A DNA stretch of 63,871 bases. Origin: a virus (lineage: Duplodnaviria > Caudoviricetes). Of the stretch, positions 1 through 63,871 are shown piece after piece (position 1 is the stretch's first letter; the number at the start of each line of letters is the position of its first letter). The notes beneath the pieces were generated by a model. That model saw only the letters and a list, made by a program, of their open reading frames with translations. It did not search any database and was not told the origin of the DNA. The position numbers and the translations under genes are program-made. The DNA lies in IMG/VR virus record IMGVR_UViG_3300025012_000086, positions 1 to 63,871 of that record; one strand, 5' to 3'.

Positions 1-176
1 TGACAGCCAAAGAGGAAGACGTTTCCAGCCAGGTGAAGAGGGAGGAAGCCAGAAAGAAGCTCTTCCCCGAGGAGTGGACCCCGAGGGCTGAGAAAGAACT
101 CCAAGATGCCAAGGCTGCAGCAGCTGCAGTAGCCAGGCCCAAAGTCGTCACCGCCCCAGGGTCGGTTGCTGTCGGC
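1..176 (+). repeat. Flank A, copy 1 (diverged direct repeat of 62940-63115) inside the giant gene
   Basis: Manual codon alignment: 53/58 aa identical, differences mostly synonymous; 35-bp exact run GCTGCAGTAGCCAGGCCCAAAGTCGTCACCGCCCC. Confidence 0.95.
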
Positions 177-3100
177 AGGTATTTCAAGACTACACCAAAT
201 AGCTCGACCATTGAGGTGGCGAAGCTACTTCCCAGGAGCGAACGTATCGATCCTGGGAAATTGGCGTCGGCTCAGTCGTTGATGGATAAAGCGGTAGCTG
301 GTATTGGTCAGAAAAGAGAACCGTTACGAGTTATTAAAAGGGATGACGGGACAATTAAGGTGTTGGACGGAAATACCACCATACACGAGTTGGCGGCTCG
401 TGGTGAGAAATATGCAGAGGTGCAGTTCGTCCAGAAAGCCACACAGGGTAAGTCTGCCAGCAAGAGCATGGATGCTTTATACGATAGCGCCATGGCGGCT
501 GTCGGCTCAATAAATAAGCATGTTGGCGAAATAGCCGAGGAAACTGGTGGGACGGTAAAATTACGCCCGTTCGAGGGTGGTCTTAAGAAAAGAGAGACAG
601 CAGAGCTGAAGCTTAAAAACAAATACGGTGGTAACGTTTCGATGATTGACGATGTGGTGGCGGCAACAATCATCTACAAAGATTACGACCACATGAAGGG
701 GGCTTTTGACAAGATAAAGAAACAGGAGAATGTTCTGTCGTGGAAAAACAGATACGACCAGGAGAGTTTGGGCGGGTATAGAGATATCCAGTTCACTATG
801 ATCGCCGACAATGGGCATATTTACGAGATGCAACTCAACACAGAACCCATGATGCAGGCTAAAAAACAACTACATGCCCTATACAAGGTGACAGGACTCC
901 TGACTCACGAAAATATAGATAGTGAAATAAAAGCATCGGCACTAGACAGGCTCAACGATCTCATGAATTACGGTTATGATGCCGCACTATCATTAGCCAA
1001 TGGTGGCAGTCAGGATGCTGTCGAAGATTTTCGCTCTGAATTATCTGGCATCGCTGAAGATTCGGCAAGAATTTTAAGTTTAGTTAATGAGTCTGTGACC
1101 TCTGACCGTCTCTCCCCGTCAACCAAGAAGATTCTCCTTGATTTTGTGTCCAGAACAAATAAATCACTACCGTCACCTAACAACACTTCCGTTGATACCA
1201 TATCAGACCCCCTTGTCGCTGGCTCTACTCCAGTGAATATTTTAACCAAACAAAATAATAATGTCAACAGAAATCTAAGTGAGGGCCAAGGTGGGCAAAA
1301 AGCTGCCGAGAAAATTGCCCCAAAAACCAGGCAATTTGAGGGCAACAAAGTCTTTACCGCCGACAAGGTGGAGAGCGCCAGGAAGAGCCTCAAGGATGCC
1401 CGTGGTAGGCTGAGCGCCGGAGTTGACCCTGAGCTGCTGGGTCACGTCATCACTATCGGTGGGGCTTATTTTGAGCAGGGCGTAAGGGATTTCGCCGAGT
1501 GGTCGGGCAAGGTGATCGCCGACGCAGGGGAGCATTACCGCAAGTACCTCAAGGAGGGATTCGAGATAGTAAGGAACCATCCTTCATTCTCGAAACAAGA
1601 AAAGAAGATCGGCGATTTCTTTAACTGGGAGCCGCCGACAGACGCCAATGGCAAGATCAAGGGGGCGCCGCCGAACGTCAATTCCAAGGAAGATCTCGAT
1701 AGGATGAGGCTGAAAATCTCACGGCTCCTGAAGGAGGGCGAGGTGGGCCGCTTCTGGTACGAGAATTCCTCCAATGCCATTCTCAAGGCGATGAACGGCG
1801 ACGTAGCCAAGGCCGAGAAATTCATCCAGCTCATAGCCATCTACTCGCCGCAAGCCCAGGTCCAGGCCAATACGGTGTTCGCCGTCAAGGCATGGAACCA
1901 GTTCGTCAACAACGTTCCGAGGGATCAGTTTAAGGTCAAGACCGCAGACCAGGATGGAAAAGCGGTCGATGTTCTCTATGACAACAAGCCATTCGACGGC
2001 AGGAAGACCAACAGTTTCTATATCAATCTCGTCAGCCAGATCATCTACAACGACCCGACAGCCATCGCCAAGATGGACCTCGACTCCTCCACCGTTGCGC
2101 TACTTAAGGAAAAGGCCACAATCGACATGTGGATGAAGCGGGCTTTCGGCTACGACGACATCGTTGTCAGGGACGATAAGGGCACCGGTCAGTACTCATT
2201 CATGGAGAACGAGATACTCAGGGTAACCGATAGGCTGAACGCCAGTCTCAAGAGGGGCGACAAGAAGTGGATTCCGTTCCAGGTGCAAGCCGCTGTTTGG
2301 ACGGCGATGAAGGCCAGGTATGAGGATGCCGTGGTCAAAACCAAGACCTGGAGCGAGTCGGTCAAGAAGGGTTACTCATTTATCGGAGATAACGGCAGGC
2401 CAGAGTTCAAGAAGGACGCAGAGTCACTGAAGCAACACCGTAAGATCTGGCACCGGCAGGCCATGTTACTACCGGCGAGAAAGGCCAGGGAGAATGCAGA
2501 ACTTACCGCAGCAGATTTCTCGACGTTCATCAACAGGGCTACATCGACAATCACCTGGGAGGCGATCCCTAGCTCTTCGTTTGAGTACGATATATTCAAT
2601 GCCTCGCCAGCAGTTAAGCGCATGTTTACTTCTGAGGCTAGGGGGCTGCTGCTGTCGAATGACGGCGCTGACATGTTAGCGCAGAGACTCGGGGTGTCAA
2701 TCTCCTTCGTGAGCGATGGAGCTGGTGCCTACGGTGGTAACGTCAACCCTAACAGTCTCAGCCATGTGGTCCTGGCGAAAGAGGGCGGTGAGTTTGTCCG
2801 CGACAACGCCAGGGATTACGCTCTCGCGATCCAATACATTTTTAAACAGGATGCGGTTCCATGGTTCAGGGCTGATGCGGCTATGCTGTCGAAGGTCAAT
2901 CAGGATAAGCAGAAATTCCGGGTGGTCAACGAGAGGGGCACAACTATCTCACGTCACAATTCCCTGGCCGAAGCCCAGGCTGCAGCGGCAAAACGCGGTG
3001 AATCATTCTCCGTGAAGGGCGGTAAATATGCTCGGGGTGTGGTGGTAGAATTCTCGGAAAACATCACAGAAAACCTAGAAAATAAAGTCCTGGCAGCACT

Positions 3101-6100
3101 CGGTGAAGGAGCTGGATTTACTAGGATTTCTAACAACCAGATCGCGATAATAAATTTCAGGGACGACTCGACGGGTGTGCCGTTCGTAGATGACGAAACT
3201 TTCATGGGCGGGGTCCAGTCATTCCTCGACAACCATGGTGCCGATCTCGGTGTTGCCGAGGCGAAATCCATGTGGGCCGAAGGGGAATATGGATACGTCC
3301 ACAACTGGAGCGAAGACGGTAATGGCGAAACGATTCTCGATAAAGGAAGCATCGGTGAACGATCAGATCTACAACGGTGGCTTCGTGATAGGCGGTCAGA
3401 CTTCGAAAGTCTTATCCAGCAATACTCGGGCGAAAACCTCAAGCTCCGTGAGCAAGAAGTCAAGGAATTCGAAAAGCTCGGTGGAATAAAATTCCAGGCC
3501 ATAGAGGTTTCAATCCCCCTCGACTCAGACGGAAATATGAACCTGGTTCACTGGTCACCAGTTCCAGGTATGAAGACTATTGATCCAGACAGATACGGAG
3601 AAGGCATTTCAGGGGCCGAGGCGAAGAGACAGCATGCCGATCCAGACAACTGGGTCAACAGGACATATTACGGGATAGGGGGCGGTGGATACCGCAAGGA
3701 AGTGGGCCTCGGCCAATACCGATACGAGGCCAAGGTTCCTCCCTCGAAGATGTACGATTTTGCCAAAGACCCAGAAGGGCTTAGAGCTAAAGCTCAGGCG
3801 GCTAGGACACAGAATCCATTCATTAATGCTACCAACCTGTACGAGAAATTCATCAAGGACGCTGGATATCTTGGCTACTGGTCAGACATGAATGGTGGAA
3901 AGGTGGCTGCTATTTTTGGCAAGATCACCCCAACCAGGGAGACATTACAACCAGAGGCCGGGGTTAAGCTGCAGGCTGGACTTGGTAAACTCTCTTCAGG
4001 GCTTCCGCGAACAGTATTCGATAGCCTCCTCTCTAGCCTAAGCCCTGGCCAAAGGAGTGTGGCATCCAAGCTGGTAAGCAGCGGCAAGGTGGTGCTTATG
4101 ACAACCGACGAAGCCATAGCCGAAGCCAAGGAAGCCGGATATTCCAAGGCCGAGCTTGATGCAAATCTCGTGCCAATCGGAATAGAGATTCCCGGAAAAA
4201 CCATACTGGTTCCCGAGAACATCCCCAGCGGCGAGTTATGGGGGTCACTGCGTCACGCAATAGGCACCCATATCGGCAGGATGATGGCCAATAGCGCTGA
4301 ATTCCAGATGATGAAGAAAACCATCGATAGGCGGCGCGGAGAAAAGTCAGACACCGGGGATGCTATCAGGCGGGCAATCGAGCAGATTCCAACCGGCACG
4401 GCCAAGGAGGATTTCAGCGAGGAGATCCTTGCCTACATGGTGAGTACGTCAGAGGACGTCGGGATCGTCAGGCGCATTATTGCGATGATAAAAAGTATGG
4501 TCACGCGCTTCGGAGTTTCGTACAAGATCTTCAACGAGAAGGACTTCAAGGCTCTGGCGGATCTCGCGATCAGGAGGGAAGCACGCAGTGACAAGCCGAC
4601 AATGTTTGACATCGAAGGGATAAAGTTCCAGATGGCTGGCAGGGAAAGCCTCACCACCGGCATCAATATGAGAGACGCCAAAATCTTCCTACGAGATAAA
4701 GGCGTACAGTTGAGTAACGTAGAGCCAGACGATTATCTTAAGCTCGCAGTGTCTCACGGCTACCTCAAGGACGAGGGCAAGCAGCTTTCCCTAATGGAGA
4801 AAGCCCAGGCGATGAAGGAGGGTGGTGCTGACAGGAAATCGATATGGGATGAAACCGGCTGGTGGGAGATGGTTCCAGGTGAATGGCAGTACGAGATTGA
4901 CGACTCCACCGGTAAGTGGGACGCCAGGACTTGGGGCATGATGAAGCCCAATGCAGCCGTGCCTCTTCCTGAGGTTTACAATAATCCACCGCTGTTTAAG
5001 GCGTACCCGTATCTCAAGGAAGTGAGGGTCATTGCAGCGAAGCTCGATCAGGGCCATCTCGGCGGCTGGGACCAGGAGGGAAATATCAGAATCAATATAA
5101 CCCTGTTTGACCCAGCAGCAAGAACAGTCCTTGAGCACGAGATGCAGCACGTCATTCAAGATATCGAGAACTTCTCGAAGGGCGGAAACGTCGCCAATCA
5201 GATCAAGAAGAACCAGGATAAACTCACTCAGCTCGATAGGCAGATAGCCAGTATCAACGAACAAATGTCGTGGATCGCAGCAAACGGGCCACAATACCAG
5301 GGCCAGCTCGTACCTGAGGCCAGGAAGCTCTACGATTCCCTCATGGAAAGCCGAAGCGTACTTGGCGCTGAGTGGGTCGTACTGTCTGGCAACATCAACA
5401 GTATCAGCCACAACGAATACAAACGGTTGACGGGTGAGGTACAGGCCAGGCTGACACAGGCCAGGCTTGGCATGTCGAAAGCGGACAGAAAGAAACATCC
5501 GCCGTGGGAGACTCTTGAGGGAATGCTCATGGGTGAGGGGCTGATGGGTATGAATCAGAAGCCAGAGGATATCCTCATCTCCCGGAAGGACGCTACTTCC
5601 GCAGGTTGGGCTGACTCATACACGCCTACCCCGGCAGTCGGCTCAGTACATCCTGCAGTGACCTTCCTGGATAGGATGGCCAATACAGTTGATTTCAAGG
5701 GCAAGTTTGACGAGATCGCCACCTACTTCTGGAACAGGGATAAAGCGATTGAGCGGGTGCAGGAGAGTATAGGTCCGCAGCCAATCGAGCGGGATCATGC
5801 CACCCTGAAAGGCCTTGTCGGCAAGATTATGGCCAACGACGTTAAGCAGTTTGACAAGAATGTCCTGCAGCCGTTCCTCGATTTCCTGGCAAAGCACAAG
5901 ATCTCTATCCAGGATGTTGAGGAGCTGGCACATGCCCAACACGCACCTGAACGCAACCTGCAGATGCGCCGGGTAAACGCCAGGCGGTACGTTGACAACC
6001 TCCTTATTTTCATGACCGACGCCGAGAAGCGCCCGTGGCAAGACAAGCTCGGGCTTATCCAGGATGAATTCGTCATGAACGACCAGACCAGAAACAAGAG

Positions 6101-8537
6101 GCGCGACAACACAATTGCCCTGGTTGAGGAGATGGCCGACACCGTGCGGAGTCAGCGGGCGCAGGTTGACCAACTCGCCAAAGAATTTGCCGCTAGGGTC
6201 TTCACCGCTGAAGAGATCAAAAAAGGCACACCGGAATTCCTGCAAAACCGTCTGCTCAATATGTATGAGAGGCTGGAAAAACGCGAGTCCATTATCGCCC
6301 ACTGGGATGATGTCAAGGGTAGACTCTCGGGAATGACAAATGGACAGGCCAGAGCTATAGAGGACAGATTCCAGGGAAGACAAGAGGTTTACCGGGCAGC
6401 AGAGATGATGCGGTCAATCAGTCGTGCCGCTCTCGATATCAACCATGAGGCAGGGGAACTGACCGATGACGAGTACTCGGCGATCATCGGCACCTATCAG
6501 TACCACGTGCCCCTCATGAGGGAAGAGGCCGATGAAGGGAAGACGCCAACCGGCAAGGCCGGGGTAGGGCCACTTGGCAAGCCGATAAAGATCGCCTATG
6601 GATCTACCAAGGGCGTGGCGCACATACTTGGCCACGTGGTTGACAGATACCAGTCCGCCCTCACACGGAGGCGTAAATTAGAGGCTGGAAGGGCGCTGTA
6701 CGAGATGGTGAAACAAAACCCTGATGAAGGTCTATGGTCAATCGGCGAGCTTGAGAAGGCCCCATATCTCGATAACGAGGGCAATGTCAGATTCTACCCG
6801 GACCAGCAGCTGGACCCGAAATACCAAACCTACGTCAAGGTCGATGGCGTCAAGCACATTATCGAGGTGGCGAAGGATAACCCTATGGCGGTTCGCTTCA
6901 TGGAGGCTATCAATCGCCAGGTCACCCCGCTCGGTCCAATTATCAGGGCGTCTGGTCATGTCACGAGGATACTCGCCAGGCTGTCCACCACATGGACCCC
7001 AGAGTTTACCCTGCCAAACTTTATCCGCGACTTACAGACAGCCATGGTCAATATGTCATCGACCGAAGCAGCTGGTATGCAGTCGAAAGTATTCGGGAAT
7101 ATCCGTAGCGCTGTTGCTGGTATCTACCGCGAGGAGCGCGGGAAACCTTCAGGCCAGTGGGGCGCTATCTACCGTGACGCTGCAGAGAACGGCGTCATTA
7201 TGGGATGGATGCGGTCGTATGATGACGTGGCCCAGTTGTCAGAGAAGATCCAGTCGGACCTTGAGATGAAGAAGGGCGGGCACAAGATCAAGGAGAACTT
7301 CATGCGTCTCGGTAATTTTATCGAGAGCGTCAACCTATCTGTCGAGAACGGCGTCAGGGTGGCAACATATCAGGCCCTGGTAGAATCAGGGATCGACAAG
7401 CGTAACGCGGCCCGTATTGCCTCCAACCTGACAGTTGATTTCACGAAACACGGTACGGCAGGGCCAGCGATGAACTCGCTCTGGATGTTCGCCAACGCCG
7501 GAATACAGGGCAACGTGCGGATACTACAGGCCGTAACATCCTCGCCGACTGTCAGAAAAACGGTAGTTGGTATCGCTGCATTTGGAGCATTCGCAAGCTT
7601 CCTTGGCGCTATTGCTGGCGGTGACGACGATGACGGGGAGTCCTACTATGATAAGCTGAAGCGGACAAACCCGGCGCTGTTTGAGCGCAACATAGTGCTC
7701 ATGGTTCCCGGTGGCGAGGGCAAACATATCAAGGTTCCTATGGCCTACGGGTACAATATCTTCTTCAAGTTTGGCGAAGAGATAGGTAGCGTCATGCGGG
7801 GGCAGAAGCCCGTAGAGGCGGCTATCAGATGGGGCAAGGCCTTCATTAATAACTTTAACCCACTGGCCGCTGGCACCATCCTGCAAACCGTGGCACCTAC
7901 CCTTCTGGACCCGCTTGCCCAGGTAAGAGAGAATGCTGCATGGCACGGTGGTCCTCTCATGCCTGCCGGTAACCCGTGGGCGAATCAGCCAGACAGCGAG
8001 CTTTATTTCAAAGATGTAAACCCGGCGTCTAAGGCGGTGACCGAGTGGCTCAATAGACATACCGGTGGTAGTAAGTACCGGGAAGGGGCGATCTCTGTTT
8101 CGCCCGAAACTATCGAGATGCTGGTCGAGACATTTACTGGCGGTGCCGGTAAGATGGCCAAAGACGTACTGAATCTTCCGTTCGCAGTAGCAGATGGCGA
8201 TCTGTCGATCCGAAATGTCCCAATAGCCAGGAGGTTGATAGGCACCATGCCCACAGGAATAAACCGTCAGATCTACTTTGAGAACCGCGAGGAGATGAGC
8301 ACCTTCGTTCGCGAGCTGAAGAGTGCAACCAAGGACGACAGACCAGGACTGATTCGCGAGCCGCTATACAAGATGGTCGGTGCCTTTGAGAGGACCGAAG
8401 AGAGAATCCGGGATCTCAATAGGCAGAAAAAAGAGATCGTCAGTAAGAAGGGCAATACTGATAGGATCGATAAGCTGATCGAGGACGCGCAAGTCGATTT
8501 TAATAAAAGATACAACAAGGCCCTTGGCCGAGATTGA
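3..8537 (+). CDS. Giant polyvalent virion/ejection protein, 5'-truncated (ParB-like, RelA/SpoT-like, HhH glycosylase-like, ART-like, LPD23 + zincin MPTase, C-terminal LPD38-like)
   Basis: Frame open from base 3; motifs VLDGNT, LKKRETAELK/IDDVVAATI/GYRD/EMQLNT, WY..YSPQ..KT.SFY..TIDMW..QAAVW, LVHWS..RTYYG, IWDETGW..WQYEIDD, HEMQH..GEVQAR, IKVPMAYGY; last gene of the ejection-protein cluster. Confidence 0.85.
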   Translation, partial: TAKEEDVSSQVKREEARKKLFPEEWTPRAEKELQDAKAAAAAVARPKVVTAPGSVAVGRYFKTTPNSSTIEVAKLLPRSERIDPGKLASAQSLMDKAVAGIGQKREPLRVIKRDDGTIKVLDGNTTIHELAARGEKYAEVQFVQKATQGKSASKSMDALYDSAMAAVGSINKHVGEIAEETGGTVKLRPFEGGLKKRETAELKLKNKYGGNVSMIDDVVAATIIYKDYDHMKGAFDKIKKQENVLSWKNRYDQESLGGYRDIQFTMIADNGHIYEMQLNTEPMMQAKKQLHALYKVTGLLTHENIDSEIKASALDRLNDLMNYGYDAALSLANGGSQDAVEDFRSELSGIAEDSARILSLVNESVTSDRLSPSTKKILLDFVSRTNKSLPSPNNTSVDTISDPLVAGSTPVNILTKQNNNVNRNLSEGQGGQKAAEKIAPKTRQFEGNKVFTADKVESARKSLKDARGRLSAGVDPELLGHVITIGGAYFEQGVRDFAEWSGKVIADAGEHYRKYLKEGFEIVRNHPSFSKQEKKIGDFFNWEPPTDANGKIKGAPPNVNSKEDLDRMRLKISRLLKEGEVGRFWYENSSNAILKAMNGDVAKAEKFIQLIAIYSPQAQVQANTVFAVKAWNQFVNNVPRDQFKVKTADQDGKAVDVLYDNKPFDGRKTNSFYINLVSQIIYNDPTAIAKMDLDSSTVALLKEKATIDMWMKRAFGYDDIVVRDDKGTGQYSFMENEILRVTDRLNASLKRGDKKWIPFQVQAAVWTAMKARYEDAVVKTKTWSESVKKGYSFIGDNGRPEFKKDAESLKQHRKIWHRQAMLLPARKARENAELTAADFSTFINRATSTITWEAIPSSSFEYDIFNASPAVKRMFTSEARGLLLSNDGADMLAQRLGVSISFVSDGAGAYGGNVNPNSLSHVVLAKEGGEFVRDNARDYALAIQYIFKQDAVPWFRADAAMLSKVNQDKQKFRVVNERGTTISRHNSLAEAQAAAAKRGESFSVKGGKYARGVVVEFSENITENLENKVLAALGEGAGFTRISNNQIAIINFRDDSTGVPFVDDETFMGGVQSFLDNHGADLGVAEAKSMWAEGEYGYVHNWSEDGNGETILDKGSIGERSDLQRWLRDRRSDFESLIQQYSGENLKLREQEVKEFEKLGGIKFQAIEVSIPLDSDGNMNLVHWSPVPGMKTIDPDRYGEGISGAEAKRQHADPDNWVNRTYYGIGGGGYRKEVGLGQYRYEAKVPPSKMYDFAKDPEGLRAKAQAARTQNPFINATNLYEKFIKDAGYLGYWSDMNGGKVAAIFGKITPTRETLQPEAGVKLQAGLGKLSSGLPRTVFDSLLSSLSPGQRSVASKLVSSGKVVLMTTDEAIAEAKEAGYSKAELDANLVPIGIEIPGKTILVPENIPSGELWGSLRHAIGTHIGRMMANSAEFQMMKKTIDRRRGEKSDTGDAIRRAIEQIPTGTAKEDFSEEILAYMVSTSEDVGIVRRIIAMIKSMVTRFGVSYKIFNEKDFKALADLAIRREARSDKPTMFDIEGIKFQMAGRESLTTGINMRDAKIFLRDKGVQLSNVEPDDYLKLAVSHGYLKDEGKQLSLMEKAQAMKEGGADRKSIWDETGWWEMVPGEWQYEIDDSTGKWDARTWGMMKPNAAVPLPEVYNNPPLFKAYPYLKEVRVIAAKLDQGHLGGWDQEGNIRINITLFDPAARTVLEHEMQHVIQDIENFSKGGNVANQIKKNQDKLTQLDRQIASINEQMSWIAANGPQYQGQLVPEARKLYDSLMESRSVLGAEWVVLSGNINSISHNEYKRLTGEVQARLTQARLGMSKADRKKHPPWETLEGMLMGEGLMGMNQKPEDILISRKDATSAGWADSYTPTPAVGSVHPAVTFLDRMANTVDFKGKFDEIATYFWNRDKAIERVQESIGPQPIERDHATLKGLVGKIMANDVKQFDKNVLQPFLDFLAKHKISIQDVEELAHAQHAPERNLQMRRVNARRYVDNLLIFMTDAEKRPWQDKLGLIQDEFVMNDQTRNKRRDNTIALVEEMADTVRSQRAQVDQLAKEFAARVFTAEEIKKGTPEFLQNRLLNMYERLEKRESIIAHWDDVKGRLSGMTNGQARAIEDRFQGRQEVYRAAEMMRSISRAALDINHEAGELTDDEYSAIIGTYQYHVPLMREEADEGKTPTGKAGVGPLGKPIKIAYGSTKGVAHILGHVVDRYQSALTRRRKLEAGRALYEMVKQNPDEGLWSIGELEKAPYLDNEGNVRFYPDQQLDPKYQTYVKVDGVKHIIEVAKDNPMAVRFMEAINRQVTPLGPIIRASGHVTRILARLSTTWTPEFTLPNFIRDLQTAMVNMSSTEAAGMQSKVFGNIRSAVAGIYREERGKPSGQWGAIYRDAAENGVIMGWMRSYDDVAQLSEKIQSDLEMKKGGHKIKENFMRLGNFIESVNLSVENGVRVATYQALVESGIDKRNAARIASNLTVDFTKHGTAGPAMNSLWMFANAGIQGNVRILQAVTSSPTVRKTVVGIAAFGAFASFLGAIAGGDDDDGESYYDKLKRTNPALFERNIVLMVPGGEGKHIKVPMAYGYNIFFKFGEEIGSVMRGQKPVEAAIRWGKAFINNFNPLAAGTILQTVAPTLLDPLAQVRENAAWHGGPLMPAGNPWANQPDSELYFKDVNPASKAVTEWLNRHTGGSKYREGAISVSPETIEMLVETFTGGAGKMAKDVLNLPFAVADGDLSIRNVPIARRLIGTMPTGINRQIYFENREEMSTFVRELKSATKDDRPGLIREPLYKMVGAFERTEERIRDLNRQKKEIVSKKGNTDRIDKLIEDAQVDFNKRYNKALGRD
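1010..1201 (-). CDS. Nested antisense small protein (63 aa), candidate antitoxin/immunity for the RelA/SpoT-like domain
   Basis: ATG at 1201, AAGGGGG SD 6 nt upstream, sigma70-like promoter at 1239-1267; MVSTEVLLGDGSDLFVLDTKSRRIFLVDGERRSEVTDSLTKLKILAESSAMPDNSERKSSTAS; function inferred. Confidence 0.65.
   Translation of the reverse strand: MVSTEVLLGDGSDLFVLDTKSRRIFLVDGERRSEVTDSLTKLKILAESSAMPDNSERKSSTAS
1239..1267 (-). promoter_or_regulatory. Antisense sigma70-type promoter embedded in coding sequence
   Basis: Minus strand TTGACA-ttattattttgtttggt(17)-TAAAAT. Confidence 0.75.
1295..1520 (+). repeat. Flank B, copy 1 (repeat of 63646-63871; last 99 bp identical)
   Basis: Both encode ..KTRQFEGNKVFTADKVE.ARKSLKDARGRL.AGVDPELLGHVITIGGAYFEQGVRDFAEWSGKVIA; 1422-1520 = 63773-63871 exactly. 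Confidence 0.95.
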
Positions 8538-8593
8538 TTGTCAAGAAAAAAGAAACTATATTCTTTAAACAAGGATTTTACCGGAGGACTCCA

Positions 8594-17321: not shown

Positions 17322-17847
17322 TTGTCTTCCCCCGAAATTGTTTTATAAACGCTGCAGCGGACGAGTTGTTGTCGTCATACGGGAAACCGAGACACTGCTC
17401 TGCGGCATACCTATGACATACCGCTTCGGCGATGTCGTGGAATCTGCCAAGGAACACCTGCTTGCCATGGATGGCTATTTGCGCCTGCCATCTCCCCCGG
17501 CTTCTGCATATTCCACAGACCCCAGTAGTGTTGTTGCTGTTGAGGCTTCTGTTTCTCTGCTGCTGCTGGTGTGTCACAACCCGCAAATTTTTACGCCAAT
17601 TATGATGCCTAATTCTGTCTTCATGGTCAACGGTGTCACAGTTATCAATATAACCATCGGTATATATTATAGCTAGTCGATGCGCACCATACATATAACC
17701 ATCTATTTTCACAACAACATATCCATCGCTATTAACACAACCTGCGACTTCACCAACGGTAGCGCCGTGAACATACTTTCTCCACGTGAACAAGCCAGTG
17801 TTCATGTCGTAACAAAGTAGCTCCCTCAACCTGTCTTGCGTTATCAT
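17314..17847 (-). CDS. HNH endonuclease with AP2-like domain
   Basis: AHRLA..DHEDR...N...NLR..N.TGV.G. Confidence 0.85.
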   Translation of the reverse strand: MITQDRLRELLCYDMNTGLFTWRKYVHGATVGEVAGCVNSDGYVVVKIDGYMYGAHRLAIIYTDGYIDNCDTVDHEDRIRHHNWRKNLRVVTHQQQQRNRSLNSNNTTGVCGICRSRGRWQAQIAIHGKQVFLGRFHDIAEAVCHRYAAEQCLGFPYDDNNSSAAAFIKQFRGKTNG

Positions 17848-18440
17848 TTCATCCTTGATACAAGCTCGTCAAGCTCGCGACAGAAACAAATTAGTTCGTG
17901 GCGTAATTTCGAGATAAGAATCTCATCTCTGGGTATTCTCAGGATTAATGGCACCTCGCTCTCGTGGTATGAGATGAAGTACCACCACGGCCTGCCGGTC
18001 ACCAACATGCAGCCCTGGACCTGCAGAAGATACTTCGAGGGAAGGACGCCACGGCGCAGGTATTCAATATGGGTCTTTTGCTCGGGAGATTTGGCCTCGC
18101 ATCCTCCTTCCTGGCCGATAAGACCATCGGGGGAACAGCCGTAGAGCCGGTCATCAGACAGACAGAATCCGACAGGGGTAATCTCCACATCCTCCACCAT
18201 GGAGAGCACGGCCAGCGCCTTAGGCTCATTGCGAATGCCGTCAGACATGGGGTTGGACACGAAGGCCTCCTGCATCTGCCCGGTTATGCGCTCCTGGGCG
18301 AGGATCTTCATGTAGCCGTCACGCTGACCGCTCCTCGCCCCCTTGGTTGTCATGATATGAGAGAACTTCGAGGCGGTGGGCCTCCCTACCCTCGCCTCGT
18401 ACCATTCCGGGGTCCGTTGATCACAGTCGATTATGATCAT
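17844..18440 (-). CDS. YqaJ/lambda-exonuclease family
   Basis: QRTPEW..R.G..TAS, SPDG, E.K.P, Y..QVQ; start MIIIDC. Confidence 0.9.
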   Translation of the reverse strand: MIIIDCDQRTPEWYEARVGRPTASKFSHIMTTKGARSGQRDGYMKILAQERITGQMQEAFVSNPMSDGIRNEPKALAVLSMVEDVEITPVGFCLSDDRLYGCSPDGLIGQEGGCEAKSPEQKTHIEYLRRGVLPSKYLLQVQGCMLVTGRPWWYFISYHESEVPLILRIPRDEILISKLRHELICFCRELDELVSRMK

Positions 18441-19282
18441 TTTTTCTGCCCCTCTTTGAATTCCTTGTAAGCCTTGCATTCGCCTGAGCAGGTAGCCGCC
18501 GAGCACATTTCCCCGGAGAGCATGAGGCCTGGAACTTGCGGGCACTCGAAGGTTGCGACCGCTGGCTTCTCCTCGACCTTAGTTTCGGTCTTGGTTTCCG
18601 GCTTTTTCCCGGCCATCTCCTTCTCTTTCTTCTTCTTTTTGATAGCGATCTGCTTCATCAGACCGGCTACATTCTTCGCCTCGATCTCGCTAAGCTCTTT
18701 GACGCCAGCCAGGTCTTTGAATTTGATCATATCCGCGCCGCTATCAACCAGCTCCTTCTTCATCGTTTCGAGCTGGGAGGCACTGATAAACACCTTCTTG
18801 TCCTCAGGTTTTTCGCCTTCGACTTCTCTGTACTTGGAACCGTCCCATAGTCCAGCATAGACGTCAGCAGCGACACCGAGCATCTTCATAGCTACCGACA
18901 GGGCGTCGGTAATAGCCATCTTGAAAGCCTCGTCGGAGGAGTAGAGTCCATTGGTTTCTTTCGCCGTGAACATGGAGCCACCAAGGCCCGGTATCGGTTC
19001 AGACCACACACCGTCAAGCTTGTACAGAAGCTCGATAGTGGCGAACGCGCACACTTGACCATCGACCGCAGCTTCAAGCCACTTTTCGGTAACCCTGTAC
19101 TTCCAGCCGAAGCCGCACGGCCCAAAGGTTTGCGTCATGGCCATGTAGCGCCACTGGGGGTTGATGTCGGTCTTGCCCTTCAGCCTGCCAGCCTGAATCG
19201 GGCGCAGGAATTGACCTGGGGGCTTCTCGACGCTATTCCATACCCTCATGTTTTTGTCAACGCTTTCTTCTTTTTCCGCCAT
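18437..19282 (-). CDS. Rad52/Sak-like single-strand annealing protein
   Basis: FGPCGFGW..KMA.TDAL..LGVAADVY; adjacent to exonuclease. Confidence 0.75.
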   Translation of the reverse strand: MAEKEESVDKNMRVWNSVEKPPGQFLRPIQAGRLKGKTDINPQWRYMAMTQTFGPCGFGWKYRVTEKWLEAAVDGQVCAFATIELLYKLDGVWSEPIPGLGGSMFTAKETNGLYSSDEAFKMAITDALSVAMKMLGVAADVYAGLWDGSKYREVEGEKPEDKKVFISASQLETMKKELVDSGADMIKFKDLAGVKELSEIEAKNVAGLMKQIAIKKKKKEKEMAGKKPETKTETKVEEKPAVATFECPQVPGLMLSGEMCSAATCSGECKAYKEFKEGQKK

Positions 19283-19574: not shown

Positions 19575-19681
19575 CAGAACACGAACGATACCAGGCCAGT
19601 GGCGATACAGGCGACAATTACCAGGAGTGTCCAGCCGATGTCGGCCCATCCGTAAATCCCAAACTCAGCAAGCTTTTTCAT
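19574..19681 (-). CDS. Small membrane peptide (35 aa)
   Basis: Coupled starts/stops, MKKLAEFGIYGWADIGWTLLVIVACIATGLVSFVF. Confidence 0.45.
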   Translation of the reverse strand: MKKLAEFGIYGWADIGWTLLVIVACIATGLVSFVF

Positions 19682-56668: not shown

Positions 56669-56669
56669 G

Positions 56670-57203: not shown

Positions 57204-57205
57204 TT

Positions 57206-58207
57206 ATGCCTTGGTTTGGAGCGATAGGTGCATATGTTGCTGGTGCCGTAGGGGTCGCCTTGGCTTCCGCCAGTATTGCTGCTGTTGTAGTTGGTGTTGT
57301 CGCGACCGCCGTTGTCGGAGCTGCTGTTGGCGCTTTGTATGCAGGAGTTACTGGCGGTAACATCGGCAAGGGGGCTTTGTGGGGGGCATTTGGCGCTGTG
57401 GCCCTGGTTGCCGGTGGGTCAGTTATATCCAGCCTTGTTGGCGGTGGAGCTGCCGCTGGCGGCGGTGCGGTGACTGTCGGCAATACTGTTGGCGGCGGTA
57501 CAACAACAATAGGCACTGGCGTGATAGGAGGCGGCGGCGCTGCTGGTGGTGGTCTTTTTACCGCCTCAAACGTAGTCGGAGCGGCAACCGTTGTCTCGTC
57601 TCTCGGCTCAGCCTTTATGAAGGGAAAGGCCGAAACCAGCAATATGGAAAGCACTATCCAAGGCCAGAAAGACATGCAGGCTGAATCGCTCGCTTCGGCT
57701 GAAAGGATCGCCGCAGCAAACCGCGAGGCAGCAATGAAGCAGGCCGAGCTTTCCGCCCAGGTTTCCAGAGAGAAGACCGCAGCAGAGGTCGCCCAGGCAG
57801 AAGCAGAGCGGGGGCAAAAGGCAGAACAGTTCTCTAAGGAATTCGAAGAGAGCGTGTTCCGTGATAGGACCGACAGGGAAGAGAAAGAAAAGGCCAGATT
57901 GGCTCTTGAAAAAGGGGTGACCGAGGGAGCGCAATATGCTGCGGGAACCACTGTAACGGCCTCCCCGGTAGAGGTCAACCGGAGGCGTAAGGAGTTGCTC
58001 AAACCTTCCTGGCTGGCTGCTGAAGAAACCCAGGCAGGAGTAACGGCCACTGGTCCGCAGGAGGGACTCACCCCAGGAGGCCCTGGAGGGGCACCGGCTC
58101 CAGGGGCACAGCAACAGGTCGCTCAGCAGGCTGGGCCAGCACCAGGTACACCGACTGTAGTTCCTACTGTGCAGCCGCCCCAAACCGGGTTGCTTGGAGT
58201 TGCGTAA
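57206..58207 (+). CDS. DNA ejection/pilot protein
   Basis: Gly/Ala-rich hydrophobic N-terminus then coiled coil. Confidence 0.6.
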   Translation: MPWFGAIGAYVAGAVGVALASASIAAVVVGVVATAVVGAAVGALYAGVTGGNIGKGALWGAFGAVALVAGGSVISSLVGGGAAAGGGAVTVGNTVGGGTTTIGTGVIGGGGAAGGGLFTASNVVGAATVVSSLGSAFMKGKAETSNMESTIQGQKDMQAESLASAERIAAANREAAMKQAELSAQVSREKTAAEVAQAEAERGQKAEQFSKEFEESVFRDRTDREEKEKARLALEKGVTEGAQYAAGTTVTASPVEVNRRRKELLKPSWLAAEETQAGVTATGPQEGLTPGGPGGAPAPGAQQQVAQQAGPAPGTPTVVPTVQPPQTGLLGVA

Positions 58208-59293
58208 ATGGCCGCGAGCGAATCGACAAAGGCCAAGGTGGCCGCGCTGCTGCAGCGGGCAGAAGAAAGGAAGACCGGCAAAAGCTCATCCGCCACTGTA
58301 CCACAGCAGACCGCCAGGGAGGCGTACGGAGATTACGTACCGTTGGAGTGGGGCAAATACTATCACTTCAACACCCCCCAGAAGCAGTACCAGGAGAACC
58401 AGGGAATCCTTTCGGTCGAGGCCGACCCACTGGCATTTGATCAAGTTGCGGCAGACAGCCTCGCCGTTGACTTTGATCCGCTATCGCCTGAAGCCTCAAG
58501 GAGGGTTGCGAGCAAGTATAAAAACTACAGCAACATAGCGATGCTCCCAGAAGAGGCTGCGGCGTTCAACGTAAATCTCGATGCGCACAGAGAAGCCGAC
58601 CAGCGGGCATACGATATATTGAAGGGATACCACGGCCAATTTAGGCAATCACTTGACGCCCGTGATTCACAGGAAAAAACTTTATTCAACCAGGCTCTTG
58701 GAGACATAAGCGCGGCTGCGGCAAGCATGAGGCCTGGCTCGGTTAGTATGAATGTGCCGATGGTAAATGTCAGGGTTGTCAGTGGTGGTAGTAATATTGA
58801 GGCTACATATAACGTTCCCCAGGCGGTTGCCGATGCCCTTGCCAAGCAAAAGAATTTATATACCACCCAGACCGACGAGGGTTTCAACGTCGATGTCAGG
58901 ATGAAGGGCGGGGAGAAAATTGGCCAGAAGCTGCACGACGCCTTACGGGACGCAGAGATCCAGACAAGGGAGAAGCTGGCGCAGTCGAAGTCGCAGGCCC
59001 AGGCAGCGGCAGAGGCCGCTGCTGCATCAGCTCGCGAGGATTTCAAGTACGGGCAATACCAAGGGCTTGTCAACGCCATAAACGAGAGTAGGACGCAGCG
59101 AAACATCCAGGTGGCTGCATTCGATCAGGAGTTTACGCAGGGCCTCGACCAGTATAGGCAAATAGGCCAGCAGTGGGGTAGCTACCTTAACGATAAGATT
59201 GTCGATCAGGCAAAAACCAAGGAAAGTACCGGTAAGGCCATTGCCCAGGTAGCTGGCAGCGGCATACTCGGCTATTCATTGAAGAGAGGATAA
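58208..59293 (+). CDS. Putative ejection protein
   Basis: Helical, in ejection cluster. Confidence 0.5.
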   Translation: MAASESTKAKVAALLQRAEERKTGKSSSATVPQQTAREAYGDYVPLEWGKYYHFNTPQKQYQENQGILSVEADPLAFDQVAADSLAVDFDPLSPEASRRVASKYKNYSNIAMLPEEAAAFNVNLDAHREADQRAYDILKGYHGQFRQSLDARDSQEKTLFNQALGDISAAAASMRPGSVSMNVPMVNVRVVSGGSNIEATYNVPQAVADALAKQKNLYTTQTDEGFNVDVRMKGGEKIGQKLHDALRDAEIQTREKLAQSKSQAQAAAEAAAASAREDFKYGQYQGLVNAINESRTQRNIQVAAFDQEFTQGLDQYRQIGQQWGSYLNDKIVDQAKTKESTGKAIAQVAGSGILGYSLKRG

Positions 59294-59294
59294 A

Positions 59295-60065
59295 ATGGCA
59301 CAGGAAATGCAGATGAGTCCCAACGCCGCAGCAGCGAAAGAGGAACCGGGGATGTCGGGACAGTTACGGCCTGGTATTCTGGCTGGCAAGGGTGTTGTTC
59401 CTGAGCCTACCGAAAAGATAGAGGAGATCGATCAGGACATGTCGAGCGCCAAGGAGCAGTTGACCCCGGAGGAAGTGGCTCAGCTTGACGCCTACGCCGA
59501 CAATGCCACCAACCTGATATTCTCCGAGAAGACGCAACCGGCGATACTGCAGCAACTGCAGGCAAGGAAGAATCCGGTGGAGAATGTGGCTTATACCGCA
59601 AATCACGTCCACAAGATCCTGTTCGATGGACTCACGAAAAACGGTGAGAGCATGACCGACAAGACCATGTTTCTGGGAGCAACCCATGTCGTATCAGAGC
59701 TACATCTTCTTGCCGAGGCCGCTGGTCTGTTCACGCTCTCGAACGAAGAGAAGCTGAACGCCTTCCAGTACACCCTGCTCATCTACTTCAAAGAGGGGAT
59801 GGAGAGCGGTAAGATCGACCCGGTGGAGCTTCAGAAGGAACTTGAGCCGTTGATGACCGACGAGCAGCGACAGTACGGCATGATGGCCATGTCGCAAATG
59901 GACGACATTTCCAAGACGGCACCGCCCAGCGGTCAGAGATGGGCAACCCCTGTCGGCAAGATGCAGCCTGGCGCAAAACCCCAGCCTGGACAACAGCAAC
60001 CACAGCCAGCTCAACGGGCTTCGGCTGAGATCCCACCTGGACTTATCGGTCAGGGAGGTATGTAA
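59295..60065 (+). CDS. Virion-associated hypothetical protein
   Basis: Ejection cluster position. Confidence 0.5.
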   Translation: MAQEMQMSPNAAAAKEEPGMSGQLRPGILAGKGVVPEPTEKIEEIDQDMSSAKEQLTPEEVAQLDAYADNATNLIFSEKTQPAILQQLQARKNPVENVAYTANHVHKILFDGLTKNGESMTDKTMFLGATHVVSELHLLAEAAGLFTLSNEEKLNAFQYTLLIYFKEGMESGKIDPVELQKELEPLMTDEQRQYGMMAMSQMDDISKTAPPSGQRWATPVGKMQPGAKPQPGQQQPQPAQRASAEIPPGLIGQGGM

Positions 60066-61096
60066 TGGCTAAAGACTACGCAGCGTGGGCCGGGCTTCTC
60101 GGAGGGGTTGCAGACCTTGGGAAGGATTATCAGAAGCGGCAGCAAGCCCTGGAGGACGAACAATTGCGCGTCACCCAGGAGATGAGGAAGGAACAGGCCA
60201 TGCTTACCAGACAGCAAGCTCTGGCTAAATTCCAGTACGACCTTGGTGCGGACGAGAGGGCAGCTGAGCGTGCCCATAAATTCACCAAAGAAGAGCAGGA
60301 AGCCGAGGACAAGAGGGCTGAGCGTGAGGAGCGCAAGTCTGAACGAGAGGAGCGGTCCAAGCGTGAAGAGCGTCAGGAGAAGAGATCCCAGGAATCCCTT
60401 GATATTCAGCGGAAACAGGCTGATAAACCTGGGGAGCTGGAGCGTAAGCTTGAACAGATCGAGAAGTCTGATCTCTCCCCGGAAGAAAAGGCTACCGCCA
60501 AAAGGAATGCCCTTGGTGCCACAAAGGGGAACCTGACCGAATTCCAGGAGTCGAGGCTTCGCTCCGATCTGGCCAAGCTCGAAGATACCGGGATCGATGA
60601 AACCAATATAGCGCAGGTTAACAGGTTGCGTCAGCAGTTAGGCGAACCACCCCTCTCGAAGAAGGTTAAAACTCCTGCAAAAAAAGGAATATTGGGATTC
60701 GGAAGCCAAGATGAGGAAGTGGAGTTTACAACTGACCAACCCGGTGGTATAGTATCTTCTGGAGGGGGATCAGAAGCCGCCGCTCCTGGACTCGACAAGT
60801 ATCAGTCGATGCTCAAACAGTCTGGCGGTATAGTTGAGATGGCCGGTCCTCCACCGACAGCACCCGCTCCACCCGCAGGCGAAACAGCGATGACGCCAGG
60901 CGAAGAAGGTGGCGGGCCACTCATCGCGCCAGAACAACTGGAGAAACTGGATACAATGACAGTTCCCCAGCTCCAAGCCCTGAAGATGGGACTTCTCGAA
61001 AGCGGTGATAAAGCTGCCATACAGTCAGTAGAGGGACAAGCCCTACTGCAGCGGATCAATCAGTTGATCCAGCAGAAATCACAACTCGTGAGATGA
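60065..61096 (+). CDS. Putative ejection protein
   Basis: GLLGG N-terminus, E/R/K coiled coil. Confidence 0.55.
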   Translation: MAKDYAAWAGLLGGVADLGKDYQKRQQALEDEQLRVTQEMRKEQAMLTRQQALAKFQYDLGADERAAERAHKFTKEEQEAEDKRAEREERKSEREERSKREERQEKRSQESLDIQRKQADKPGELERKLEQIEKSDLSPEEKATAKRNALGATKGNLTEFQESRLRSDLAKLEDTGIDETNIAQVNRLRQQLGEPPLSKKVKTPAKKGILGFGSQDEEVEFTTDQPGGIVSSGGGSEAAAPGLDKYQSMLKQSGGIVEMAGPPPTAPAPPAGETAMTPGEEGGGPLIAPEQLEKLDTMTVPQLQALKMGLLESGDKAAIQSVEGQALLQRINQLIQQKSQLVR

Positions 61097-61099
61097 TCA

Positions 61100-63871
61100 A
61101 TGATCCCATTCGAGCAGATCGAAGGCCTACCTGAATATCAGAGTGCCACCCCGGAACAAAAGCTCTCAGTCCAGAACGAATACGCCAAAGACTTCTGGAC
61201 TGAGGTTTATCAAGACCAGGAATTCCAAGCAGCACCAGAAGAAGAGCGGAACCAGCTGATCAGCACTTTCGACCAGCGTTTCGGCCCAGACGTCCGTGGT
61301 TTTGTAGAGGAACAGATCGAGGGAAGCCGTCGAGGGTTTCTGGCGAATATGTTCGCCCTCGTGAAGTCCGGTGGAAAGGCGACTCTGGCAGCTTCCAGGA
61401 TTGCCGACGACATGGCCAGCGGTGAGCTTGACAGCAATACAGCCTCCATCCTGGCCGAAAGCATCCTTGCCGAACAGAAGAAATATACCCCGGAAGAATT
61501 GCGAGAGCTACAGGAGGCAGTGGTCGAGCCGTCCGAGGAATGGGAGAAGGCCGAGGGCCTTAGCGAGAAAGCCAAGGCCGCATGGGACATGATCAAGGCT
61601 GTTGCCGGTCAGGCTGCTTTCAACCCCAAGGGCATGGCCTATATGACCGCCGAGCAGGCTGGCAACATCGTTCCTGGTATGGCCGGTATGGTTGGCGGTG
61701 CGAAGGCTGGGGCCGGTGTCGGTAGTGTCGTTCCAGGCGTAGGGACAGCCGCTGGCGCGACGATAGGCGGTGTCGTAGGTGGCTTTCTTGGACAGTGGGG
61801 GATCGAGGCTGGATCTGAATTTCGTGGCATGGTGGCACAGGAATTGCAGAGACGAGGCCTGCAGCCAACCGAGGAGAACGTCCTTGAGATACTGGCTGAC
61901 GATAAATTCGTTGAGGAGTCAATCGATAACGCCAGGGATAAGGCCACGGCCACATCCGCCGTAAGCGCAGCAATGAACGTTGCCACCGGCAGGATTGCCT
62001 CCGTCCCTTTCAAGGCAGCGCAAAAAGAGGCCATCGCCAGATTGGGTGCCGATGCTACGGCTGACCAGGTCAGTATGGCCACCAAGGAGATCCTCGCCTC
62101 CAGGACACTGACGCAGCGGGCAGCTACCGGCGCAAAGGCCTACGGAGCACAGGTTGCCGAGGAACCATTATCAGAGGCCGCTGGCCAATATGCCGGATAT
62201 GGCAAGGTTGATCTGGGGGAAGTTGGCCTTGAGACTCTTGGCGGCATAGGTGGATCTGTCGCAGAAACGCCAGCAGCCATCTCTTCATTCGGTGAGGGCG
62301 TCAAGGCTGGCACTCAGCAGCAGGCACCTCCTCCACCCCCTGAACCTATTGATGTAAAACCGGTCGAGCCGGTATCTATTCTGGCCGCAGAGAGCCTTGA
62401 GGAGGCTATAGGCGCTTTCAGGAATTCCCTCAACGTGAACCAGGAGCCAACTCCAGGAGCAGAGCCAATAGCGACGCCGTGGGGAACAACCGCAGAGGAT
62501 TCCGCCAGAGTATTCGAGGAGGCTGGTATCACTCAGGCCGAAGAAGACATAGCGGCGCGTGAGGCCGAAGGCGACATAAGAACAAGGAGACAGGCCGACC
62601 TTGAAGAGGCGTTTGCCGGGGAGTTACAGCCGTCATCTGCGCAGGAATCAGCCGAGGTGTTCGCCGCCTCGCCAGAGACAGGTCTTGAGCAGAAGCTTGG
62701 CCGGGTCGAAGAGGGTGCAAAATTCGCCGGTACTGAATACGCTAAGCCGCCAGTGGCCAAGACCGAGAGGCGTGAAGCTGCGGAGGAGGCATTCACGGAA
62801 GCGCCTGCAGAATTTGCCAGATCGAGCGGTGCCCCATTTTCGAGCGAGAAGGCCCTCAGGACGAGCGCTAAGCAACGCGGGGTGGATCTATCAGGTTACA
62901 ACGTGATCGAGCGACAGGGTGGCTTTGTGGCTACTCCTGTGGCAGCTAAAGAGGAAGACGTTTCGGCGCAGGTAAAAAGGGAGGAGGCTAGGAAGAAGCT
63001 GTTCCCGGAGGAATGGACCCCCAGAGCCGAGAAAGAACTTCAGGACGCCAGGGCTGCAGTCGCTGCAGTAGCCAGGCCCAAAGTCGTCACCGCCCCTAAG
63101 TCAGTTGCTGTCGGCCAGGAAGTTGCAGTGGAGCCAACCGAACCGCAGAAAGAGGCCGGGAATTATAAAAAAGCACATGTCTCTATCGACGGCCTTGATA
63201 TCAGCGTGGAGAATCCGGTAGGCAGTGTTCGTAGTGGAATCAGCAAAGAGGGCGAGCCGTGGTCAACCGAGATGAAGAGCGACTACGGATATGTCCGTGG
63301 AACCAAGGGGTACGACAAGGATCATCTCGACGTATTCATCAAGCCAGGCCATGCTGGCGGAAGCGAGAATGTCTTTGTCGTCAACCAGTATAACCAGGCT
63401 GGGAAATTCGATGAACACAAGGTCGTGCTCGGTGCTCAATCCGAGAGAGAGGCCATGGAGATCTACAACTCCAACTATGCGAAAGGGTGGACTGGCGGAA
63501 AGTCGGTAGTCTCTATGCCGATGGCCGAATTTAAGGAGTGGTCTAAGAGTGGGGGGCCTGCTCGTGGCGCTCTTACACAGGGGGCGGTCAAGACCGAACC
63601 CACCAAGGCCGAGCCGCAGGAGGCTGACGTTGCCGAGATAGTAGAGCAAAAAACTGCAGAGAGAATTGCCACAAAAACCAGGCAATTTGAGGGCAACAAA
63701 GTCTTTACCGCCGACAAGGTGGAGAATGCCAGGAAGAGCCTCAAAGATGCCCGTGGTAGACTGGGCGCCGGGGTTGACCCTGAGCTGCTGGGTCACGTCA
63801 TCACTATCGGTGGGGCTTATTTTGAGCAGGGCGTAAGGGATTTCGCCGAGTGGTCGGGCAAGGTGATCGCC
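61100..63871 (+). CDS. N-terminal part of giant polyvalent protein (924 codons, runs off the end), with InPase domain
   Basis: Not in ORF track; ATG 61100 MIPFEQIEGLPEY..; 63116-63645 encodes AGNYKKAHVSIDGLDISVENPVGSVRSG..W...M..DYGY..GT.G.D.DHLDVF..FDEHK. Confidence 0.85.
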   Translation, partial: MIPFEQIEGLPEYQSATPEQKLSVQNEYAKDFWTEVYQDQEFQAAPEEERNQLISTFDQRFGPDVRGFVEEQIEGSRRGFLANMFALVKSGGKATLAASRIADDMASGELDSNTASILAESILAEQKKYTPEELRELQEAVVEPSEEWEKAEGLSEKAKAAWDMIKAVAGQAAFNPKGMAYMTAEQAGNIVPGMAGMVGGAKAGAGVGSVVPGVGTAAGATIGGVVGGFLGQWGIEAGSEFRGMVAQELQRRGLQPTEENVLEILADDKFVEESIDNARDKATATSAVSAAMNVATGRIASVPFKAAQKEAIARLGADATADQVSMATKEILASRTLTQRAATGAKAYGAQVAEEPLSEAAGQYAGYGKVDLGEVGLETLGGIGGSVAETPAAISSFGEGVKAGTQQQAPPPPPEPIDVKPVEPVSILAAESLEEAIGAFRNSLNVNQEPTPGAEPIATPWGTTAEDSARVFEEAGITQAEEDIAAREAEGDIRTRRQADLEEAFAGELQPSSAQESAEVFAASPETGLEQKLGRVEEGAKFAGTEYAKPPVAKTERREAAEEAFTEAPAEFARSSGAPFSSEKALRTSAKQRGVDLSGYNVIERQGGFVATPVAAKEEDVSAQVKREEARKKLFPEEWTPRAEKELQDARAAVAAVARPKVVTAPKSVAVGQEVAVEPTEPQKEAGNYKKAHVSIDGLDISVENPVGSVRSGISKEGEPWSTEMKSDYGYVRGTKGYDKDHLDVFIKPGHAGGSENVFVVNQYNQAGKFDEHKVVLGAQSEREAMEIYNSNYAKGWTGGKSVVSMPMAEFKEWSKSGGPARGALTQGAVKTEPTKAEPQEADVAEIVEQKTAERIATKTRQFEGNKVFTADKVENARKSLKDARGRLGAGVDPELLGHVITIGGAYFEQGVRDFAEWSGKVIA
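62940..63115 (+). repeat. Flank A, copy 2
   Basis: Diverged repeat of 1-176. Confidence 0.95.
63646..63871 (+). repeat. Flank B, copy 2
   Basis: Repeat of 1295-1520; terminal 99 bp exact. Confidence 0.95.

Follow-up and report, generated by a model that had tools for sequence, protein, structure and literature searches.

Polyvalent proteins of phages, as defined by Iyer, Burroughs, Anand, de Souza and Aravind in 2017 (PMC5512222, from part of its text here and below), include InPase, RelA/SpoT, DdrB-ParB and LPD38 among their phage-type domains. The same part of that paper proposes that such proteins are packaged in the virion and processed by an embedded metallopeptidase (MPTase), with DdrB/DarB of phage P1 as the packaged-protein analogy, and it raises cassette-like recombinational variability as a possibility; for the Helicobacter prophage jhp1044 group it describes orthologous polyvalent proteins in up to 50 domain combinations. 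Mass spectrometry of virions of the cultured phage JC1 revealed its DarB-like protein gp69, a distant homologue of the protein described here (PMC9144972, likewise from part of the text). Domain mosaicism among orthologous polyvalent proteins is therefore known already from PMC5512222. Here, the entire IMG/VR virus record IMGVR_UViG_3300025012_000086 was examined (63,871 bases, called the window below), in which the gene for a predicted DarB-like polyvalent protein runs across the two ends of the record. Each end carries a different in-frame cassette, one encoding an InPase domain and the other a ParB/Srx-like and a RelA/Tas1-like domain, between the same two flanks (A and B). These cassettes are alternative forms of one site in one gene, not tandem units, and both forms co-exist; the novelty is a clear-cut instance of such mosaicism inside single samples, with defined flanks.

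The locus was compared with three kinds of described system. It resembles the polyvalent proteins, so far as the cited part of PMC5512222 describes them, in that a giant multidomain protein is encoded in the late or virion module and its orthologues have differing domain sets; it is unlike them in that two alternative cassettes occupy exactly one site, within the same flanks, in phages co-occurring in the same samples. A listing-level search of open-access texts for populations in which polyvalent or DarB-like proteins exchange cassettes returned nothing beyond PMC5512222, the supplementary architectures of which might include such pairs. The Bcep22-like podophages (Lessievirus: Bcep22 gp75, JC1 gp69) are similar in being phages of approximately 62 kb with a huge gene at the end of the virion module, and their DarB-like proteins share both phrog_10089 and a B-like module (43–47% amino-acid (aa) identity). 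However, identity to the Lessievirus proteins is low outside B, and tblastn against the fetched part of Bcep22 gp75 did not find the N-terminal part, A, either cassette or the downstream part, the B-like module excepted. Polymorphic toxins of the Rhs/CDI type also combine a conserved carrier with an exchangeable enzyme module between conserved sequence, diversified by recombination in a conflict setting; in the window, by contrast, the variable module is internal rather than C-terminal, neither an immunity gene nor a stored silent cassette accompanies it, and the carrier is a predicted phage virion protein.

The record is labelled linear in IMG/VR, and its completeness was estimated at 100% by CheckV. 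At its left end, flanks A1 and B1 enclose 1118 bp (cassette 1), while A2 and B2 enclose 530 bp at its right end (cassette 2; Table 1); A and B each occur twice in the record, and these copies are the two ends. There were 27 differences over the 176 nucleotides (nt) of A and 10 over the 226 nt of B, every one of the latter at or before position 1421; the final 99 nt of the record (63773–63871) are an exact copy of 1422–1520. The cassettes differ in length by 588 bp, or 196 codons, and so the frame is kept: the open reading frame (ORF) 61100..63871 is open at its 3' end, ORF 3..8537 is open at its 5' end, and the two frames match. This arrangement agreed in coordinates and frame with an original prediction, made by a model from the sequence alone, which had also put the synonymous changes in flank A at about 18 of 58 codons. 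Exactly 18 were counted, with five further codons differing non-synonymously (NG86 non-synonymous divergence (dN) 0.058, synonymous divergence (dS) 0.73); dS for flank B was 0.10. The longest identical block shared by A1 and A2 was 35 nt (123–157).

Logan contigs from four public groundwater runs (X1, X3, X5 and X7) were aligned to positions 1–5000 of the window. In X3, a contig of 1223 nt (record 5, depth 5.6) was identical to window 128–1350 and represented the ParB/RelA-like form, and a contig of 635 nt (record 6, depth 18.1) shared its ends with the first but contained the 530 letters of the InPase form; the depths are per-contig k-mer values, and their ratio is a rough guide. The two cassettes therefore form a bubble with common ends in X3, and both forms co-exist. 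In X1, a contig of 14,132 nt matched window 4–176 with 23 differing letters, which were of A2 type wherever individually tabulated, and the letters preceding place 4 were those of window 62913–62942. After position 176 this contig continued through 530 letters matching nothing in 1–5000, and then through window 1295–5000 with 10 differing letters, the same number that separates B1 from B2; those individually tabulated were all B2 letters, and none lay past 1421. The contig passes from A2 through 530 letters to B2 and on into 1422–5000; therefore, the genome closes, and without a second A-cassette-B unit. A 217-nt contig from X5, which belongs to a different study, carried B2 letters across 1352–1568 and spanned the same junction.

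The 530 letters between A and B were present in contigs of X1, X3 and X5, and loose contig ends in X7 corresponded to 63116–63145 and 63616–63645. Fragments identical to cassette 1 were found in X1 (641–820) and X7 (610–862). Across most of 335–1169, contigs of cassette 1 were missing from X1, X5 and X7, a gap from which absence of the allele does not follow. The original prediction had offered two readings, either two population alleles of one slot or tandem units within one gene, and had recommended that assemblies across A and B be inspected; the closure in X1, the bubble with shared ends in X3 and the single-slot relatives described below bore out the first and refuted the second.

Accordingly, the phage genome measures approximately 62.4 kb and closes on itself, and the record is its wrap-around assembly. 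The InPase-form genome measures approximately 62,351 bp, and the record exceeds this by an allelic overlap of 1,520 nt, since its two ends match as alleles and not exactly. Headful packaging of circularly permuted DNA is probable for this phage; terminal redundancy and circular permutation are described for JC1 (PMC9144972, part of the text), and a genome of that kind would explain the wrap-around assembly here. The record ends exactly 99 nt past the last allele-specific base, which suggests a vertex of a k = 99 de Bruijn graph where both paths merge.

Table 1. Positions of the two allelic ends, the polyvalent-protein gene and a recombination gene in the window
Feature	Position	Strand	Remarks
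5' part of polyvalent-protein gene	61100..62939	+	613 codons, upstream of slot; 74% aa identity to P0001 residues 1–598
Flank A2	62940..63115	+	~58-aa charged linker, major allele; 85% nt identity to A1
Cassette 2, InPase domain	63116..63645	+	Pfam match ~63143–63547, PF18823
Flank B2	63646..63871	+	Start of ~90-aa conserved module; record stops here, gene goes on at 1521
Flank A1	1..176	+	Linker A in minor allele
Cassette 1	177..1294	+	ParB/Srx-like (~204–440), predicted RelA/SpoT-Tas1-like nucleotide pyrophosphokinase (~387–887), helical tail
Antisense ORF	308..673	-	Judged not a gene
Flank B1	1295..1520	+	Module B in minor allele; 96% nt identity to B2
Remainder of polyvalent-protein gene	1521..8537	+	Common to both alleles
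DUF7178-like	~1743–2312	+	Pfam
LPD23	~4779–4913	+	Pfam
HEMQH zincin-type motif	5136–5150	+	Motif position, ~220 nt past LPD23 match
LPD38	~7686–8222	+	Pfam
YqaJ/RecE-like exonuclease	17844..18545	-	PF09588 69.9 bits; phrog_149

Relatives were sought with several parts of the protein, in scans that may leave out records of, or near to, the window's own genome. The close relative was a single contig of 60,676 nt (L004): with B and the downstream 500 aa as the query, it was the one qualifying stretch of four from viral contigs and the one of 65 from metagenome contigs, and it was again the one of six for the N-terminal part. For cassette 1, neither of two stretches qualified. The L004 protein (P0001) is encoded by one gene and comprises, over 3440 aa, the N-terminal part, a ParB/RelA-like segment (610–975), B (1029–1128) and the rest. 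Its cassette comes directly after the homologue of 61100–62939, linker A being lacking in L004, and shows 59% aa identity to cassette 1. A more distant protein of 3441 aa (P0002, ~60% identity downstream) has the N-terminal part, InPase (Pfam, 658–793), B (845–933) and the rest. In P0003, possibly a truncated protein, the 381 residues ahead of B match neither cassette nor any Pfam family. Judging by these protein sequences, relatives have one gene and one slot, holding either cassette type.

When the window was compared with L004 at the nucleotide level, identity was ~100% at 60256–61456, fell to 74–79% from 61456, and was again ~100% at 2092–6292, with values of 66–83% in between; across 1293–8854 as a whole it was 94%, with long stretches at ~100%. 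The slot therefore sits in a divergent island of ~3 kb within near-identical DNA. Similar alternation between ~100% and 65–85% identity was observed genome-wide, for example at 6292–6692, 8492–8854 and 55293–59256. Such mosaicism is usual in phages, and the island around the slot is one among several divergent blocks. Further afield, cassette-1-like segments occurred in 13 of 120 listed homologues (211 were found), lying before or after the shared downstream region, and InPase in two of the same 120. Approached from the other direction, a B-like module followed InPase in 20 of 80 kept IMG/VR loci (from at least 548 InPase loci), at a distance of 67 nt to ~2.7 kb. In these more distant homologues the modules move independently.

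The 530 bp of cassette 2 had been assigned to InPase, and the assignment stood: the match to PF18823 scored 176 bits (cut-off 26.8, E = 4e-52) and covered profile positions 2–135 of 135. In the cited part of PMC5512222, InPase domains are suggested to clear pyrophosphate or to cleave a nucleotide signal, and four metal-binding acidic residues are named for type I pyrophosphatases.

For cassette 1, a profile was built from four sequences, namely the cassette itself, its L004 homologue and two homologues of near-equal length, which were two of 5,639 candidates. Among PDB entries, this profile matched Tas1, a toxin that synthesizes (p)ppApp (6ox6, E = 2e-10), and SaSAS, an exported small alarmone synthetase (8vx3, E = 0.0055), while its first ~90 positions matched SbnI, a protein of ParB/Srx fold (5ujd, E = 2e-4). 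The positions aligned with the Tas1 motifs R-x-K, D, G-Y and E-x-Q were invariant among the four sequences. The AlphaFold2 (AF2) model of cassette 1 was of low confidence (pLDDT 61); the alignment was shallow and the fold model weak because just two stand-alone homologues turned up. Foldseek returned 37 matches to this model at E <= 0.001, of which those listed were RelA/SpoT-type synthetases (small alarmone synthetases, Tas1 and CapRel); the match to SbnI ranked 43rd (E = 2.3e-3 over 79 columns of the low-confidence model). The second part of cassette 1 is thus predicted to be similar to Tas1 and the small alarmone synthetases, and might make an alarmone-like nucleotide. It resembles Tas1, 8vx3 and CapRel (7ztb) by profile and by fold, and from these its predicted product could be ppGpp, ppApp or pyrophosphorylated tRNA; unlike them, it sits in a putative virion polyprotein, after a ParB/Srx-like domain. 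For that first part the likeness to ParB/Srx is proposed and no activity is claimed. Cassette 1 gave no ParB match in Pfam, the DdrB-ParB model included, and an atlas search by similarity gave the ParB-like part no named match (0.78).

Both domains of cassette 1 also occur in a stand-alone protein of 353 aa (P0122), and therefore the ParB-like and RelA-like pair behaves as a unit. P0122 has a hydrophobic N-terminal leader, recalling the exported synthetase 8vx3 at the top of the fold search. The guanine-cytosine (GC) content of cassette 1 was 45.4%, against 52.6% for its gene; in L004 (8744–9841) the values were 46.6% and 53.3%. A GC content lower by ~7 points in both genomes hints at a different origin for the cassette. 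The antisense gene that the original prediction had placed inside cassette 1 was not upheld. It had no Pfam match, it was one of 13 antisense stretches within the gene that stay open for at least 100 aa, and the homologous stretch of L004 is interrupted in every antisense frame, by 2, 9 and 3 stops.

The slot lies ~614 codons into a gene of ~3,260–3,460 codons. The protein matches InPase, LPD23, LPD38 and phrog_10089 ('DarB-like antirestriction'), and genes for the terminase large subunit, the major head protein and two tail fibres lie upstream on the same strand. The gene stands at the end of the virion module and encodes a DarB-like polyvalent protein, putatively a virion component. Like other polyvalent proteins, it brings together a number of unrelated effector-type domains in a single, very long chain, and a phage encodes it among late or virion genes. 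No peptidase family was found above threshold in the window protein; P0002 gave a weak, sub-cut-off match to DUF6782 ('putative metallopeptidase'). Pfam gave no match in the window protein to the helicase or methylase domains of P1 DarB. A payload slot in an ejected protein, as originally proposed, would fit the DarB-like family, the position at the end of the virion module and, by analogy, the presence of JC1 gp69 in virions (PMC9144972, part of the text).

Module B had no match in Pfam or PHROGs, and may be an undescribed polyvalent-protein domain. A query of 1000 aa was matched by 62 records, and 17 of the 20 rows listed aligned over B, with 39–49% aa identity. B-like modules (window 1295–1600) recur in DarB-like proteins of Burkholderia, Ralstonia, Pseudomonas, Erwinia and cyanobacterial phages.

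Taken as a whole, we consider it very probable that the window holds the minor and the major allele of one site in the polyvalent-protein gene, at the two ends of a wrap-around assembly, and that these alleles are exchanged by recombination. The assembly would begin in the minor allele (ParB/RelA-like) and finish in the major allele (InPase) at the same site. Homologous recombination in cells infected by related phages at the same time would create and swap the alleles, with crossovers falling within the conserved flanks or outside them and a right limit at 1421. From what is described for its family, the protein would be packaged and delivered with the DNA, and its own zincin-type peptidase would perhaps cut it into units; which enzyme of nucleotide or pyrophosphate chemistry the newly infected cell receives would then depend on the allele.

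Several observations count against this account. All four runs were represented by Logan contigs, which give approximate depths and lose rare variants, and X1 and X3 are possibly the record's own source sample, so that they would offer an independent assembly and not an independent sampling of the population. Among the listed contigs with A1 letters, none extends past place 1; therefore, the left limit of the divergent segment and the upstream collinearity of the minor genome were unseen. Recombination-driven exchange is read from the pattern of divergence, with no event observed, and the protein's packaging, ejection and processing, like the activity of its enzymes, are proposed by analogy. 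The remaining points concern the content of cassette 1, which had been described as ParB-like plus RelA/SpoT-like. Profile and fold likeness support both parts of this description, but the score against Pfam RelA_SpoT (PF04607) was 24.1 bits, under the cut-off of 27. The ParB/Srx active-site motif is of the DGxHR type. In SbnI it reads DGVHR, which aligns with DGNTT in the window, DGNTT in L004 and DGNKT in P0122; the conserved arginine of ParB/Srx (PMC5512222, part of the text) is not evident, and the ParB-like domain may be divergent or non-catalytic.

Of the other explanations, the one to survive best, although we think it unlikely, is that the minor form belongs to a distinct, related phage that differs widely from the major one, and that the assembler merged the two where they are identical. 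The synonymous divergence of flank A is deep, the sequence upstream of A1 was unseen, and identity to L004 forms a mosaic from 65% to 100% along the genome, all of which speak for such a phage, as does a variant in X7 with 19 differing letters over 1838–4072, which indicates that several strains circulate. Against this, B differs at just 10 of its 226 positions, X1 and X3 list no second variant past 1421 over 3.5 kb (given that contigs drop rare variants), and both forms would occupy the same slot even so.

Far less probable is an assembly chimera, in which 1–1421 would come from an unrelated phage and be joined through the shared 99 nt. The original prediction had named this outcome, together with a lack of variation at the slot among relatives, as fatal to its proposal. 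The join does depend on a short exact overlap, and the GC content of cassette 1 is below that of the rest; yet B1 runs on into the shared gene, the contig identical to 128–1350, from Logan's separate assembly, runs on both sides into letters common to the major allele, and the closest relative has the same type of cassette at the same place.

Tandem units are scarcely credible. One very long gene would contain A2-InPase-B2 and A1-ParB/RelA-B1 in series, and the record would break inside the repeat; this would account for open frames with the same flanks at both ends, and modules do stand at varied places in other polyvalent proteins, as with the B-like module after InPase in the 20 loci noted above. 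However, the 14,132-nt contig of X1 passes one cassette and enters 1422–5000, the X3 cassettes have both ends in common, and the proteins of relatives (3440 and 3441 aa) each contain a single unit. Programmed switching within one genome by a shufflon, a silent cassette or a mechanism like that of diversity-generating retroelements, with either payload expressible, is just as improbable: silent cassettes are stored in polymorphic toxin loci and the possibility was raised for some polyvalent-protein loci (PMC5512222, part of the text), but the closed genome has one cassette, the record holds no further copy of A or B, and the slot showed neither an inverted-repeat nor a template-repeat pair.

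The phage had also been credited with its own exonuclease and a Rad52/Sak-like annealing partner. The exonuclease was corroborated by a Pfam match (Table 1); for the partner, however, Pfam Rad52_Rad22 gave no match anywhere in the record, and the neighbouring ORF (18437–19318, minus strand) resembled Rad52/22 clusters by language-model features only (0.92). A PDB sequence search with this putative annealing protein returned nothing relevant. The Rad52-like partner is a lead only, and a link between the phage recombinase and the slot is speculation. HNH endonuclease genes (17314–17847 and 19257–19649, both on the minus strand; phrog_99 and phrog_131) flank the exonuclease and the putative annealing-protein gene.

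Just before the polyvalent-protein gene, a 333-aa protein rich in Gly and Ala (57206–58207) is followed by three more unmatched genes, to 61096. These four genes (57206–61096), together with 54104–56668, had no match in Pfam or PHROGs. By analogy with Bcep22, the products of 57206–61096 may be internal virion proteins. The ORFs at 50949–52280 and 52284–53618 are adjacent tail-fibre paralogues (phrog_4492). They contain the DNA repeats D3 and D5, with 76% and 72% identity and start-to-start spacings of 1335 and 1356 nt respectively, and these shared repeats point to a tandem duplication of the fibre gene.

A further proposal, which we put forward tentatively and regard as possible rather than likely, is that the slot is a standing balanced polymorphism, in which A and B would serve as adaptors for recombination, and perhaps for processing, while the injected enzymes would be traded against host defences. 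Both cassette types would be old, because each occurs in diverged relatives. Linker A has a dN/dS of ~0.08 despite its dS of 0.73, and the two cassette types would persist side by side in groundwater samples of at least two studies. If true, this would be a phage counterpart, at the scale of populations, of cassette exchange in polymorphic toxins, and of the enzymes being traded, one would act on pyrophosphate or nucleotides and the other would make an alarmone-like nucleotide.

The locus shows, at nucleotide resolution and inside single samples, the way in which domains of polyvalent phage proteins are exchanged: one complete enzyme module takes the place of another, in frame and inside conserved flanks, and the rest of the gene is identical. 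Nature has here supplied two 'payload' variants that are otherwise near-isogenic, and with them the roles of InPase and of the RelA/Tas1-like domain on cell entry could be tested. Other 'linear' viral contigs whose ends overlap imperfectly may likewise be marked by a polymorphic hot spot, and not be fragments.

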